DNA of 64,000 nucleotides from an uncultured Bacilli bacterium (GTDB lineage: Bacteria; Bacillota_I; Bacilli_A; RF39; UBA660): contig CALVRA010000005.1 of NCBI GenBank assembly GCA_944358415.1, positions 6,778 through 70,777 of the forward strand, written 5' to 3'. This document shows, piece by piece, positions 5,198-11,016 of the stretch. Within the stretch, counting starts at the first letter, position 1, and every line of letters starts with the position of its first letter. The translations under genes were made by a program, and so were the position numbers. A model generated the notes under the pieces. That model saw nothing but the letters and a program-made list of their open reading frames with translations. It was not told where the DNA came from and made no database searches.

Positions 5198-5226
5198 TTG
5201 TCAAATTTCATAAAATAATGTACAAT
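5198..5226 (+). promoter_or_regulatory. Sigma-A-type promoter of the tRNA/T-box/gatCAB unit
   Basis: TTGTCA, 17-nt spacer, TACAAT, located 20 nt upstream of tRNA-Ile. Confidence 0.65.
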
Positions 5227-5246
5227 GATAAAGTCGAATGAGAAAT

Positions 5247-5323
5247 GGGCCTGTAGCTCAGTTGGTTAGAGCACACGCTTGATAAGCGTGGGGTCGTAGG
5301 TTCAAGTCCTACCAGGCCCACCA
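5247..5323 (+). tRNA. tRNA-Ile (anticodon GAT)
   Basis: GGGCCTG acceptor, anticodon loop TTGATAA, TTCAAGT T-loop, encoded CCA. Confidence 0.95.
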
Positions 5324-5331
5324 TTTTGTTT

Positions 5332-7815: not shown

Positions 7816-9272
7816 TGGGATATAAAGTATTAATTGGTTTAGAGATGCACTGTGAAATCAGTAATACTAAAACTAAAGTATTTTCTTCGGCTATAAATGG
7901 TTATAGTGATAAAGCTAATACAAATATTAGACCGGTTGATATGGCTTTTCCTGGCACACTTCCTGTCGTTAATAAAGAAGCGGTTAGACTTTCTTTAATG
8001 GCAAGTATGATTTTAGGATGCACGCAGCCAGAATATTTATATTTTGAAAGAAAAAATTATTATTATCCTGATTTACCTAAGGGATTTCAAATTACCCAGG
8101 AAACAAAACCGGCACCTATTGGTAGTTATGGTAAGTTAGAGTATGAGGTAAATGGTGAGAAGAAAAGTGTTAGAATTAATAACTTACATTTGGAAGAGGA
8201 TGCGGCTTCTTCTGATCACTATGCTTCTGGCTCTAGAATTAACTATAATAGGGCAGGAGTGCCTTTACTTGAACTTGTTACGGAACCTGATTTTAGATCA
8301 GCTGATGAGGCAGTAGCTTTTTTGGAAACAATGAGAAGTATTTATCAGTATGCAGATATTAGTGAGGCTGATAGTAAAAAAGGACAAGTTAGATGTGATG
8401 TCAATGTGTCTATTATGGAAGATAATTTAGATGAAAATGACCCTAAAAACTGGGGAACTAAGATTGAGATTAAGAATGTTAATTCATTTGGTGGGGTTAG
8501 AGATGCAATAAATTATGAAATTCAAAGACAAATTGATTTAAAAGAGGATGGAAAATATGATGAGATGCCTCAGCAAACACGTAGATGGGATGAAGAATCT
8601 GGAACAACTATTTATATGCGTAGTAAAGTAGATGCGATTGATTATAAATATTTTGTGGAACCTAATATTCCAAAATTCAAAATTTCTAAAGAGTGGTTAG
8701 AAGAAATTAGAAAGAGTATTCCTAGACTCGCCTTTGAAAGAAAGGAACAATATATAAATGAATATGGTGTATCAGAATATGATGCGACTATTTTAGTTAA
8801 AGAAAAACCAGTAGCTGACTTTTTTGAAAAAACTATTAGTTTAGGGGCAAATCCTAAAAGTGCTTCTAACTGGATTACGACTAATTTACTAGGTAATTTA
8901 AATAAAATGGAATTAACGATTGATGAAGCAAAACTTACACCAGAACATTTAGCAGAGCTTATTAAAATGGTTGAAGATAAAGAAATTTCTTCACAGCAAG
9001 CTAAAGGAGTATTTACTGAAAGTTTGGAAACCGGCAAATCTCCTCATGATATTGCAGCAGAAAAAGGTTTAAAACAAATTACTGATGAAGGTGAGATTGT
9101 TAAAATAACTAATGAGGTTTTAGATGAAAATCCTGATGTTATAAAGCAATATAAAAATGGTAAGACTAATATGGTCAACTATTTAGTTGGACAGGTTATG
9201 AAAAAAACTGGTGGGAAAGCTAATCCTAGTTTAGCTAGGGATGTTATGGCTAAAGAAATAGAGAAGAGGTAA
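7815..9272 (+). CDS. gatB: Asp/Glu-tRNA amidotransferase subunit B
   Basis: ...IGLEMHCEI...NYNRAGVPLLELVTEP...RCDVNVS... and a YqeY-like tail. The start overlaps the gatA stop (ATAATG). Confidence 0.95.
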   Translation: MGYKVLIGLEMHCEISNTKTKVFSSAINGYSDKANTNIRPVDMAFPGTLPVVNKEAVRLSLMASMILGCTQPEYLYFERKNYYYPDLPKGFQITQETKPAPIGSYGKLEYEVNGEKKSVRINNLHLEEDAASSDHYASGSRINYNRAGVPLLELVTEPDFRSADEAVAFLETMRSIYQYADISEADSKKGQVRCDVNVSIMEDNLDENDPKNWGTKIEIKNVNSFGGVRDAINYEIQRQIDLKEDGKYDEMPQQTRRWDEESGTTIYMRSKVDAIDYKYFVEPNIPKFKISKEWLEEIRKSIPRLAFERKEQYINEYGVSEYDATILVKEKPVADFFEKTISLGANPKSASNWITTNLLGNLNKMELTIDEAKLTPEHLAELIKMVEDKEISSQQAKGVFTESLETGKSPHDIAAEKGLKQITDEGEIVKITNEVLDENPDVIKQYKNGKTNMVNYLVGQVMKKTGGKANPSLARDVMAKEIEKR

Positions 9273-9276
9273 GGCA

Positions 9277-11016
9277 ATGAAATATAGAACACAGTACATT
9301 AATGAGCTTTCTGAAGAGAGTATTGGAAATGTTATTAAAGCTTGCGGATTTGTTGAAAATATTCGTGATCACGGTGGAGTTATATTTGTCGATGTTCGTG
9401 ATGAAACTGGGGTTTTACAAATTGTAAGTAATGATGATAGTATATTTAATGGTTTAACTAAAGAGTCAGCTGTTACTTTAACTGGTACTGTACGTATGAG
9501 AGATGAAGAAAATTTTAATCCTAAAATTAGTACAGGAACAATTGAGGTTTTAGTTGATAGTTTTGAAGTTTTAGGTAAAGCTAAGAATGAACTTCCTTTT
9601 GAGATTATTACTTCTACTAATGTTAATGAAGAGGTTAGATTAAAATATAGATATTTAGATTTAAGAAATCCAAAAGTTCATGAAAATATTTTATTTAGAA
9701 GTAAAGTTATTAAGTATTTAAGAGATGTTATGGAAGAAAAGGGCTTTACTGAAATTCAAACACCTATTTTAACGGCATCTTCTCCTGAGGGAGCTAGAGA
9801 TTATTTAGTACCTTCCCGTAAATATAAAGGCAAATTTTATGCTTTACCACAGGCACCACAGCAATTTAAACAATTACTTATGGTAGCTGGCTTTGATAAA
9901 TATTATCAAATTGCCCCTTGTTTTAGAGATGAGGATGCGAGAGCAGATAGATCACCTGGAGAGTTTTACCAATTAGATATGGAAATGGCTTTTGCTTCGG
10001 CCGAAGATGTTTATGAAGTGGCGGAAGATGTAATGTATAAAACATTTACTAAATTTTCTAATAAAAAAGTTTCACCTAAACCTTTTAAAAGAATTACTTA
10101 TAAAGAATCTATGCTTAAATATGGAACAGATAAACCAGATTTAAGAAATCCATTAGAGATAATAGATTTAACTGATGTATTTAAAAATACAACATTTAAA
10201 CCATTTTCTGGCTCTATTGTTAGAGGTATTGCCGTAGATGATATAGCTTCTAAGTCTAATTCTTGGTTTAATGAACTTGTTGATTATGCGAAGAAAATAG
10301 GAATGCCTGGAATTGGTTATATAAGTGTTTTAGATGATGGAACATTTAAAGGACCAATTGATAAGTTTTTATCTGACGTGGAAAGAAAAGATTTAATAGA
10401 AAAAGCTAATTTAAAAAAAGGTTCTGTTTTATTCTTTATTGCTGATAAAAAAGAACTTACTGCGAGTGCGCAAGCAGGACTTATTAGAACAGCTTTAGCT
10501 GAAAGATTAGATTTAATAGATAAAGATAGATTTGAATTTTGCTTTATTGTTGATTTTCCAATGTATGAATATAGTGAAGATGAAGGCAGATTTGTTTTTA
10601 CACATAATCCATTTAGTATGCCACAAGGTGGAATGGATGCACTTTTGAATCAAAAAACAGAAGATATTTTAGCTTATCAATACGATATTGTATGTAATGG
10701 TGTTGAATTATCTTCAGGTGCGGTTCGTAATCATGATGTAGAGATTATGGAAAAAGCTTTTGAGATTGCTGGATATACTAAAGAAGAATTAGAAAGTAGA
10801 TTTAAGTCACTTTATACAGCTTTCCATTATGGTGCACCACCACATGCAGGTATTGCGCCTGGTATTGATAGAATGATTATGCTTTTAAAAGATGAACCTA
10901 ATATTCGTGAAATTATTGCTTTTCCTTTAAATAGTAATGCACAAGATATGATGATGGGCGCGCCAGCGGAAGTAACAGAAAAGCAATTAAGAGAAATTCA
11001 TATTAAGGTTAGATAA
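9277..11016 (+). CDS. aspS: Aspartate--tRNA ligase, bacterial type with insertion domain; discriminating or non-discriminating status cannot be read from sequence
   Basis: Class II motifs ...FYALPQAPQQFKQLLM...FRDEDARADRSPEF...GAPPHAGIAPGIDR... Starts 4 nt after gatB. Confidence 0.95.
   Translation: MKYRTQYINELSEESIGNVIKACGFVENIRDHGGVIFVDVRDETGVLQIVSNDDSIFNGLTKESAVTLTGTVRMRDEENFNPKISTGTIEVLVDSFEVLGKAKNELPFEIITSTNVNEEVRLKYRYLDLRNPKVHENILFRSKVIKYLRDVMEEKGFTEIQTPILTASSPEGARDYLVPSRKYKGKFYALPQAPQQFKQLLMVAGFDKYYQIAPCFRDEDARADRSPGEFYQLDMEMAFASAEDVYEVAEDVMYKTFTKFSNKKVSPKPFKRITYKESMLKYGTDKPDLRNPLEIIDLTDVFKNTTFKPFSGSIVRGIAVDDIASKSNSWFNELVDYAKKIGMPGIGYISVLDDGTFKGPIDKFLSDVERKDLIEKANLKKGSVLFFIADKKELTASAQAGLIRTALAERLDLIDKDRFEFCFIVDFPMYEYSEDEGRFVFTHNPFSMPQGGMDALLNQKTEDILAYQYDIVCNGVELSSGAVRNHDVEIMEKAFEIAGYTKEELESRFKSLYTAFHYGAPPHAGIAPGIDRMIMLLKDEPNIREIIAFPLNSNAQDMMMGAPAEVTEKQLREIHIKVR

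Follow-up and report, generated by a model that had tools for sequence, protein, structure and literature searches.

T-boxes are the textbook RNA sensors of tRNA charging, and classically they control messenger RNAs (mRNAs) for synthetases, biosynthesis enzymes and transporters. To our knowledge, every T-box target described so far is a protein-coding gene. In Clostridium acetobutylicum, an Asn-responsive T-box reportedly controls the genes for AspRS and the amidotransferase GatCAB, and it is said to stand before protein-coding genes only. That T-box-controlled operon for tRNA-dependent amidation is credited in PMC4206432 to Saad et al. 2012 (J Biol Chem) and Saad et al. 2013 (PNAS). The present analysis concerns a T-box in a 64,000-nucleotide stretch of DNA from an uncultured Bacilli bacterium (contig CALVRA010000005.1, positions 6,778 to 70,777; the whole stretch is called the window below). 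In this window, an Asn T-box leader lies directly before four genes for tRNA-Asn(GTT), its own ligand, followed by gatC, gatA, gatB and aspS, and the genes for tRNA-Ile and tRNA-Glu lie in front of it.

The C. acetobutylicum operon and the window have in common an Asn T-box placed over AspRS and GatCAB of the indirect route to Asn-tRNA-Asn. A first-pass annotation, made from the letters of the window, had mentioned T-box control of aspS and gatCAB in C. acetobutylicum, in agreement with Saad et al. 2012 (cited in PMC4206432). However, four ligand tRNA genes come first past the terminator in the window, and its T-box has no promoter of its own and lies inside a tRNA operon, unlike in C. acetobutylicum. 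The leader itself is built like the Bacillus subtilis tyrS and glyQS T-boxes, with a Stem I specifier loop, a distal platform, an antiterminator with a UGGN bulge and a competing terminator, and would follow the same logic of readthrough caused by uncharged tRNA. In contrast to the classical targets, its first products would be the effector tRNAs, which would add a positive ligand loop. No description of a T-box before tRNA genes was found in full-text literature searches, which leave some room for an earlier mention; nor do the TBDB paper, the Wels 2008 survey or a C. difficile riboswitch review speak of it. The novelty is twofold: the effector tRNA comes first among the regulated genes, and in loci arranged like the window the leader is embedded in a tRNA operon.

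The Escherichia coli thrU-tyrU-glyT-thrT-tufB operon yields tRNAs and a translation-factor mRNA from one promoter, and these are parted by RNA processing. The window resembles it in the co-transcription of tRNAs and mRNA that its layout suggests. However, the E. coli operon has no riboswitch, and it does not tie the identity of its tRNAs to a sensor of their own charging. We regard it as likely that the promoter, tRNA-Ile, tRNA-Glu, the Asn T-box, the four tRNA-Asn genes, a U8 run and gatC-gatA-gatB-aspS of the window form one transcription unit gated by uncharged tRNA-Asn. The first-pass annotation had proposed such a gated unit, and the proposal gained support from the promoter-free gap after the terminator, the adjacency of T-box and tRNA-Asn in at least 78 species, the covariation of the leader and the occurrence of tandem T-boxes.

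The leader was matched by the Rfam T-box model RF00230 at positions 5430-5670 with 144 bits, far above the gathering score of 93 (E 3.5e-32), over model positions 1-219, which is the full length. The element is a true T-box. Aligned to the model, its specifier loop reads GAA-U-AAC-A-CC (GAA-U-AAC-A at 5514-5522) and the 5' half of the S-turn reads AGUAAU. In distal Stem I, AGAGAG and GGUGAAAG match the AGAGA and GGUGaaA positions of the model, which form the tRNA-elbow platform. Within the antiterminator, GGUGGUACCGCG at 5636-5647 sets UGGU opposite G73-CCA of tRNA-Asn, with a G-U pair at the discriminator. The terminator stem (5652-5683) and its U-run (5683-5688) share 5652-5668 with the antiterminator, so that the two structures are mutually exclusive in RNAfold predictions. 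The T-box hallmarks, the AAC specifier, the antiterminator with its terminator and the wobble of UGGU against G73 had all been claimed from the letters, and Rfam and RNAfold reproduced each of them.

To survey other genomes, one genome per GTDB species was scanned for a T-box motif followed by a tRNA D-arm within 45-75 nucleotides (nt), and at least 120 loci were obtained. Relative loci and contigs of this analysis, from GTDB species genomes or metagenomes, are labelled L011-L162. At least 78 species proved to have a T-box right in front of tRNA-Asn, namely those of 77 of the first 120 pattern matches and of L033; in these 77 of the 120 matches listed, tRNA-Asn(GTT) starts 49-73 nt past the T-box motif. 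All ten tested loci of this type exceeded the Rfam T-box threshold. Chance is excluded because of the E-values and the same layout in other genomes. Most of the records are gut metagenome-assembled genomes (MAGs) labelled uncultured Bacilli, Tenericutes, Mollicutes or Erysipelotrichaceae. Among the matches listed, the closest relatives share 92-97% protein identity with the window and include a complete 1.52-Mb chromosome, OZ007022.1 (locus L076). Furthermore, the same GatC protein was found on 17 metagenome contigs, and all six of those with upstream sequence keep the order tRNA-Ile, tRNA-Glu, T-box, two to four tRNA-Asn and gatC, with T-boxes of 140-145 bits. The scan also returned matches in Sphingobacterium, which were rejected as tandems of tRNA-Phe, and single matches in Proteobacteria and Actinobacteria, which were plain tRNAs without an Rfam T-box where tested.

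The loci fall into two classes, counted among the matches listed. Class A (29 loci, the window included) consists of a promoter, tRNA-Ile, tRNA-Glu, the T-box and one to four tRNA-Asn genes, and 25 of the 29 have the Ile-Glu tRNA pair 5' of the T-box. Class B (49 loci) has its own promoter directly 5' of the T-box, followed by one or two tRNA-Asn genes. The genes past the tRNA array vary: gatCAB-aspS, gatCAB-asnS (AsnRS 583 bits), gatCAB-asnA (347 bits) or asnS alone (621 bits). Whatever gene comes next, tRNA-Asn is the first gene after the T-box throughout the 78 or more species.

Tandem T-boxes were observed in this family. In locus L026 (3313-3964), a promoter precedes a T-box (AAC) with terminator and a single tRNA-Asn; after 8 nt comes another T-box (AAC), also with terminator, and then gatCAB-asnS. 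L054 has the same spacing, and the sequence past its tRNA-Asn reads, by eye only, as the 5' end of a second T-box. Judged by this layout, one T-box gates nothing but a tRNA gene in the L026 species and probably also in the L054 species. L026, and probably L054, resemble known tandems in having two T-boxes in series, as in C. difficile, where two T-boxes stand before the homoserine dehydrogenase gene CD1580 (PMC11477304). However, known tandems stand back to back before a single gene, whereas tRNA-Asn lies between the two T-boxes of L026; one antitermination event would be needed for the tRNA and two for the enzymes.

Selection on the leader was analyzed in an alignment of 66 distinct homologous leaders, one each from 66 species. 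The consensus recovers Stem I, Stem II, Stem IIA/B, Stem III and the antiterminator. Of its 40 pairs, 29 carry compensatory changes, and the GAA-N-AAC-A columns show little or no variation. The helix competing with the antiterminator is also maintained: 79.7% of cells pair in register, compared to 30-48% when the partner columns are slid. In the 78 loci among the matches listed, the UGGN bulge has U as its fourth base in 45 and C in 33, and all complete tRNA-Asn copies of the same loci have G73 as discriminator. Since the U or C always faces G73, ligand and sensor match throughout. Could the T-box have decayed into a relic and lost its response to tRNA? Class B relatives do have weak U-runs, but nothing in the window points that way, and such decay is scarcely credible for a leader that matches the whole model at its score, keeps specifier and bulge almost invariant and compensates most of its pairs across the 66 species.

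The coordinates of the features are collected in Table 1. Genes were called from reading frames, with start codons read from the sequence, and from NCBIfam and Pfam profiles; the coordinates of the first-pass annotation all hold by ARAGORN, Rfam, reading frames, NCBIfam and the sequence itself. The first tRNA-Asn starts 8 nt past the U-run of the terminator, and the enzyme mRNA begins 369 nt past it, so that the four genes nearest the terminator are tRNA genes, which are not the usual class of T-box target. gatC starts 34 nt past the fourth tRNA-Asn, and the gaps between gatC, gatA, gatB and aspS are 1, -1 and 4 nt. The four tRNA-Asn copies vary only at one D-loop position (C or T) and at acceptor-stem positions 4-6; their acceptor stems read GCCUGAU, GCCCAAU, GCCUGAU and GCCUAAU, and the 3' strand compensates.

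Table 1. Features of the tRNA-Asn and gatCAB-aspS locus and its flanks, in window coordinates.
Feature	Position	Strand	Evidence and remarks
Promoter-like site TTGATA-17-TAGAAT (second site)	5125-5153	+	Consensus scan; TG just 5' of it
Promoter-like site TTGTCA-17-TACAAT	5198-5226	+	Consensus scan, 10 of 12 matches; predicted; likely promoter for the unit as a whole; -10 box ends 20 nt 5' of tRNA-Ile
tRNA-Ile(GAT)	5247-5323	+	ARAGORN; Rfam tRNA 76.5 bits
tRNA-Glu(TTC)	5332-5407	+	ARAGORN, Rfam; 3' end 22 nt before the T-box
Asn T-box leader (Stem I, Stem II, Stem IIA/B, Stem III, antiterminator, terminator)	5430-5688	+	Rfam RF00230
Specifier codon AAC (Asn)	5519-5521	+	Rfam model alignment; followed by conserved purine A5522
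T-box sequence AAATAAGGTGGTACCGCG	5630-5647	+	Sequence and Rfam alignment; UGGU at 5638-5641
Antiterminator helix with 7-nt bulge UGGUACC	5633-5668	+	RNAfold -7.0 kcal/mol
Intrinsic terminator, 13-pair stem with one mismatch, then U6	5652-5688	+	RNAfold -14.9 kcal/mol
tRNA-Asn(GTT) copy 1	5697-5772	+	ARAGORN, Rfam; G1-C72, G73, CCA encoded
tRNA-Asn(GTT) copy 2	5779-5854	+	ARAGORN, Rfam; G1-C72
tRNA-Asn(GTT) copy 3	5863-5938	+	ARAGORN, Rfam; G1-C72
tRNA-Asn(GTT) copy 4	5947-6022	+	ARAGORN, Rfam; G1-C72
U8 run (T8 in DNA)	6025-6032	+	Sequence; two bases 3' of the CCA of the last tRNA-Asn
gatC ribosome-binding site GGAGG	6045-6049	+	Sequence
gatC	6057-6356	+	TIGR00135 46 bits, cut-off 47.1; Pfam PF02686
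gatA	6358-7815	+	TIGR00132 435 bits, equivalog cut-off 481; Pfam Amidase
gatB	7815-9272	+	NF004012 578 bits, above cut-off; D-S-K-K motif
aspS, bacterial-type AspRS with GAD domain	9277-11016	+	NF001750 763 bits, cut-off 443; Pfam
IS1182-family transposase gene	11038-12537	-	436 bits

The extent of the transcription unit was assessed by consensus scans for promoters. Two promoter-like sites were found 5' of tRNA-Ile (5125-5153 and 5198-5226), and no promoter-like site was found on the + strand in 5226-6151 of the window. Only the window and the two close relatives L076 and L097 have the site at 5125-5153 as their top-scoring one. In about 20 of 26 class A loci, a TTGTCA-17-TATACT or TACAAT site ends about 20 nt 5' of tRNA-Ile. 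Across the 29 class A loci, the best promoter score between T-box and tRNA-Asn reaches at most 8.5 of 12.5 (median 7), and that between tRNA-Glu and T-box at most 9.5 (median 7.5). Both intervals score at background level, that is, as the inside of the leader does. In class B, a perfect TTGACA-17-TATAAT stands directly 5' of the T-box in 33 of 44 loci. Promoters are recognisable where present, and the scans found no promoter-like site inside the unit; therefore, the window T-box is most simply read as an internal conditional terminator of the tRNA operon, with the tRNA-Asn genes and the enzymes behind it. The absence of a good promoter between terminator and tRNA-Asn, noted from the letters at the outset, was borne out in the window and in the class A loci.

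Between tRNA-Glu and the T-box, TTGTTA (5411-5416) and TATAAA (5429-5434) were rejected as a promoter: they lie just 12 nt apart, and ATAAATAC belongs to the 5' consensus of the T-box. Two further candidates were rejected near the end of the leader, namely TATAAC at 5675-5680, which lacks the conserved final T, and TATAAA at 5690-5695; neither is conserved. These two hexamers bear on another explanation, in which tRNA-Asn would be made from its own unrecognised promoter or mostly by constitutive readthrough, and the T-box terminator would mainly end the tRNA-Ile/tRNA-Glu operon. We consider this very improbable. The AT-rich sequence is rich in weak -10-like hexamers such as these, and consensus scans are crude; however, transcription from the TATAAA at 5690-5695 would start within the tRNA, and in none of the 29 class A loci does a hexamer pair exceed background. 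Furthermore, a plain terminator would not need a conserved and covarying specifier, bulge and antiterminator.

The spacer between the tRNA-Asn array and gatC showed a second conserved feature. The end of the last tRNA reads CCA-TC-T7/8, without a separate hairpin, in the window and in about 16 close species, and RNAfold predicted no hairpin at the U8 run of the window. The last tRNA-Asn together with U8 was rejected as a canonical terminator: no hairpin abuts the run, from which the acceptor stem is separated by 6 nt. A canonical hairpin with U6-7 stands at the same position in most other species, e.g., ACAAGTCCTTAGGACTTGTTTTTT, and in L026 the second T-box occupies it. Since the hairpin lies directly before the ribosome-binding site, there is no room for a promoter. 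The U8 run itself may serve for weak termination, for pausing or for tRNA/mRNA processing, and the position fits a conserved partial stop that would keep the tRNA-to-mRNA ratio high. The first reading of the window had raised the possibility that the T8 could partly separate tRNA output from gatCAB output, and this is supported by the hairpin and U-run that most relatives carry at exactly this position. In L081, L083, L123 and L104, the spacer terminator hairpins resemble decayed T-arms of tRNA-Asn, e.g., GGGTCGTAGGTCATAGTTCCTAC, and these terminators may derive from degenerate tRNA copies.

From the anatomy of the locus and its conservation we infer co-transcription, a response to charging, processing of the transcript and a purpose of the feedback, which would combine as follows. 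RNA polymerase would start 5' of tRNA-Ile, and tRNA-Ile and tRNA-Glu would always be made. The nascent T-box would then capture tRNA-Asn by pairing of the AAC specifier with the GUU anticodon. With charged tRNA-Asn, the terminator at 5652-5688 would form and the transcript would end there; the terminator would therefore also close a small Ile-Glu operon. With uncharged tRNA-Asn, G73-CCA would pair with UGGU (5638-5641) and stabilise the antiterminator. Readthrough would yield four tRNA-Asn per transcript and, less often, the gatCAB-aspS mRNA, given partial attenuation at U8. The tRNAs would be freed by RNase P and 3' processing, with the enzyme mRNA left over.

Two loops would result from this arrangement. 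In the positive loop, uncharged tRNA-Asn would lead to more tRNA-Asn; in the negative loop, more charging enzymes would lead to less uncharged tRNA. With both loops paired, the whole Asn-decoding module would be scaled to demand. The window has a G+C content of 28.4%, and Asn makes up 7.0% of its codons (1138 AAT vs 84 AAC). In an AT-rich genome with Asn at this share of codons, the single tRNA-Asn species would therefore be in heavy demand. The tandem copies and the strong stable-RNA promoter would offset attenuation and prevent a dead state without ligand to open the switch.

Several observations weigh against a T-box-gated unit, or against parts of it. Consensus scans cannot exclude an unusual promoter. 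Many class B loci, including L013, L038, L073, L092, L047 and L089, have an A-rich or mixed tail instead of a U-run past the competing helix, 2-14 nt before the tRNA. In those loci the competing helix is conserved, and there is no ribosome-binding site there to sequester; the switch may work differently or weakly where the U-run is missing. Pairing of the leader with the 5' strand of the tRNA was sought in class B as an explanation of the missing U-run, and nothing convincing was found. L123 has an extra, different tRNA-Asn(GTT) with G1-C72 at 420-345 nt 5' of the T-box motif, where it replaces most of tRNA-Ile; this copy could lie outside T-box control, or it could reflect an assembly chimera. 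The remaining points concern a sister lineage with another gene order and the tRNA-Asn's own first base pair.

In the sister lineage, tRNA-Asn lies 0.7-2 kilobases (kb) 5' of the Asn T-box and outside its unit, in L131 and on 13 other metagenome contigs. L131 (1837-9011) has the order tRNA-Asn, two small open reading frames (ORFs), a T-box (AAC, 126 bits), aspS, a 233-amino-acid ORF and gatCAB, and is the natural counterpart of the C. acetobutylicum operon among the relatives. The 13 contigs (L135, L138-L140, L144, L149-L152, L155, L158, L159 and L162) have the order tRNA-Asn, T-box motif, aspS, as judged by motif and tblastn only, and gatCAB is also present where the contig extends far enough. 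GatB of the sister lineage keeps D-S-K-K, and its tRNA keeps G1-C72. Therefore, gating of the tRNA is an option and not obligatory.

This classical order, with the T-box directly before aspS and tRNA-Asn outside, would also suit the explanation that the tRNA-Asn genes are passengers: an array inserted between the T-box of gatCAB-aspS and the enzymes, whose gating would be a tolerated side effect without regulatory meaning. tRNA arrays move and duplicate easily, and the hairpins past some arrays that resemble decayed T-arms are in keeping with it. We nevertheless judge it improbable. tRNA-Asn stands first past the T-box in all of the 78 or more species regardless of what follows, including asnS alone. 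In L026 and L054, one T-box precedes a single tRNA-Asn and a second precedes the enzymes, which points to selection for gating of the tRNA itself, and the same design arose for Phe.

The remaining point concerns the enzymes. All three GatCAB subunits are encoded in the window; GatA and GatC score just under their equivalog cut-offs and have the right Pfam domains, and the complex is therefore a divergent GatCAB. The AspRS is of the bacterial type, and sequence is an unreliable guide to its discrimination. In tRNA-Asn, the first base pair is G1-C72 in all four window copies, in 165/165 complete copies in genome loci among the matches listed, and in 39/39 copies in metagenome loci. The U1-A72 first pair is an identity element for bacterial GatCAB, and a G1-C72 variant is amidated about 100-fold less well by the canonical bacterial enzyme (PMC1635274). 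The indirect route would therefore need a GatCAB with altered recognition. The first-pass annotation had placed the whole indirect route in one unit; the genes, T-box and tRNAs are indeed present, but it had missed that the tRNAs carry G1-C72 instead of U1-A72.

In Staphylococcus aureus GatB, the 3-10 turn K183-M184-E185-E186 reads U1-A72, and G1-C72 is accepted when the turn is removed (PMC2811023). Residues 186-189 of the window GatB are D-S-K-K at this turn, with the same length, compared to x-[M/L]-[E/Q]-[E/K] in other bacterial GatB proteins. Nearly all operon-linked GatB proteins have D-S-[KR]-[KR], or R-T-D-[RK] and close variants, and all depart from the canonical turn. In 148 other GatB cluster representatives, position 2 is M or L in 144 and position 3 is E or Q in 139, and Ser at position 2 occurs only in the nearest relative. 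This co-variation of the turn with the tRNA suggests a GatCAB adapted to G1-C72 tRNA-Asn, with possible co-evolution. It would support, and is not proof of, action of the operon enzymes, AspRS and GatCAB, on the operon tRNA.

Firmicutes generally require GatCAB for Gln. A further explanation accepts the T-box-gated unit and holds that its GatCAB serves only Gln-tRNA-Gln, that its AspRS is discriminating, and that Asn-tRNA-Asn is made by an AsnRS encoded elsewhere. It draws on this general need for Gln, on G1-C72 as an anti-determinant for canonical bacterial GatCAB in all tRNA-Asn copies, and on asnS in the same operon of many relatives. Even so, it appears unlikely, as dozens of species have gatCAB linked with tRNA-Asn behind a T-box with an Asn specifier, and the altered 3-10 turn of the linked GatB proteins fits a relaxed reading of the first pair. 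Furthermore, tblastn found no asnS, asnA, asnB, second gatCAB or aspS copy or paralogues in the 64-kb window, which is weak evidence.

The window operon encodes all parts of a possible Asn-transamidosome, namely the tRNA, AspRS and the three Gat subunits. Such complexes of non-discriminating AspRS (ND-AspRS), GatCAB and tRNA-Asn are known from Thermus thermophilus and Helicobacter pylori (PMC3367201; PMC2811023). Unlike in these, the tRNA-Asn of the window has G1-C72 instead of U1-A72, and the GatB 3-10 turn is changed. A metagenome scan with the core of the tRNA-Asn found this tRNA in other contexts in other organisms, which has no bearing on the genome of the window. L132 (108-5175) holds 22 tRNA genes in 5 kb, including a tRNA-Asn with the 50-nt core of the window; its tRNA-Gln has U1-A72, its tRNA-Asn, tRNA-Asp and tRNA-Glu have G1-C72, and ARAGORN also calls a tRNA-SeC.

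A parallel case was found for Phe. In at least nine species, a T-box stands 8-30 nt before tRNA-Phe(GAA), and all nine have a canonical terminator. Two of the nine T-boxes (L068 and L080) are above the Rfam threshold, and in these the specifier reads UUC; the other seven are below it (57-88 bits) but reach E 6e-10 or better over the full model. Past tRNA-Phe lie pheS-pheT in L037, L049, L082 and L127, and a PheS-related ligase in L068 and L062, which is the NCBIfam 'PheS-related mystery ligase SrmL' (430 bits). The remaining Phe loci are L032, L080 and L084.

An Ala-like arrangement was observed in Ruminococcus MAGs (L053, 7010-7339; L101, 763-1107; L043, L061 and L011). Here, a T-box with terminator (95 bits in L053 and L101) is followed about 20-35 nt on by a tRNA-like element of 93-131 nt, and alaS comes next (AlaRS 983 bits). 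The specifier reading of this T-box is ambiguous, GCU or CUU. The acceptor stem of the element is normal and contains G3:U70, the identity pair of tRNA-Ala; the D and T arms are normal too, and A73 with CCA can be seen in L053 and L101. In place of an anticodon arm there is an expanded region holding the hairpin GUCUUGUAUAAGAC. AlaRS needs no anticodon. Therefore, the element could be a chargeable tRNA-Ala mimic that is unusable for decoding.

At the 3' flank of the window operon, the IS1182-family transposase gene lies 21 nt past the aspS stop codon in convergent orientation. The distance from the T-box motif to tRNA-Ser(GCT) is 7.7 kb in the window vs 5.9-6.4 kb in close relatives, and therefore an insertion of about 1.3-1.8 kb (IS1182) is specific to this genome.

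With the Asn loci in at least 78 species, the Phe loci in at least nine and the tRNA-Ala-like element before alaS in Ruminococcus, T-boxes may have an unrecognised target class, the genes of their own ligand tRNAs, and some Bacillota may set tRNA supply by autoregulation through charging state; we put this generalisation forward tentatively, at slightly less than even chances. Databases that assign the next protein-coding gene as the T-box target would then misassign these cases. T-boxes without a U-run past the competing helix may, if this holds, act on pre-tRNA processing rather than on termination.

The G1-C72 tRNA-Asn and the altered GatB provide a natural experiment on how amidotransferases discriminate tRNA substrates. 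If the proposed reading is true, the linked GatCAB would have evolved to accept G1-C72 tRNA-Asn through the GatB turn, and the U1-A72 rule, regarded as general among bacterial amidotransferases, would be broken. The locus would then be a natural case of tRNA-level homeostasis by riboswitch, with mixed feedback whose dynamics (set point, possible bistability and gene copy number) would be directly testable. It would also explain how AT-rich gut Bacillota with reduced genomes could adjust the supply of a heavily used tRNA, and of the enzymes that charge it, to demand.

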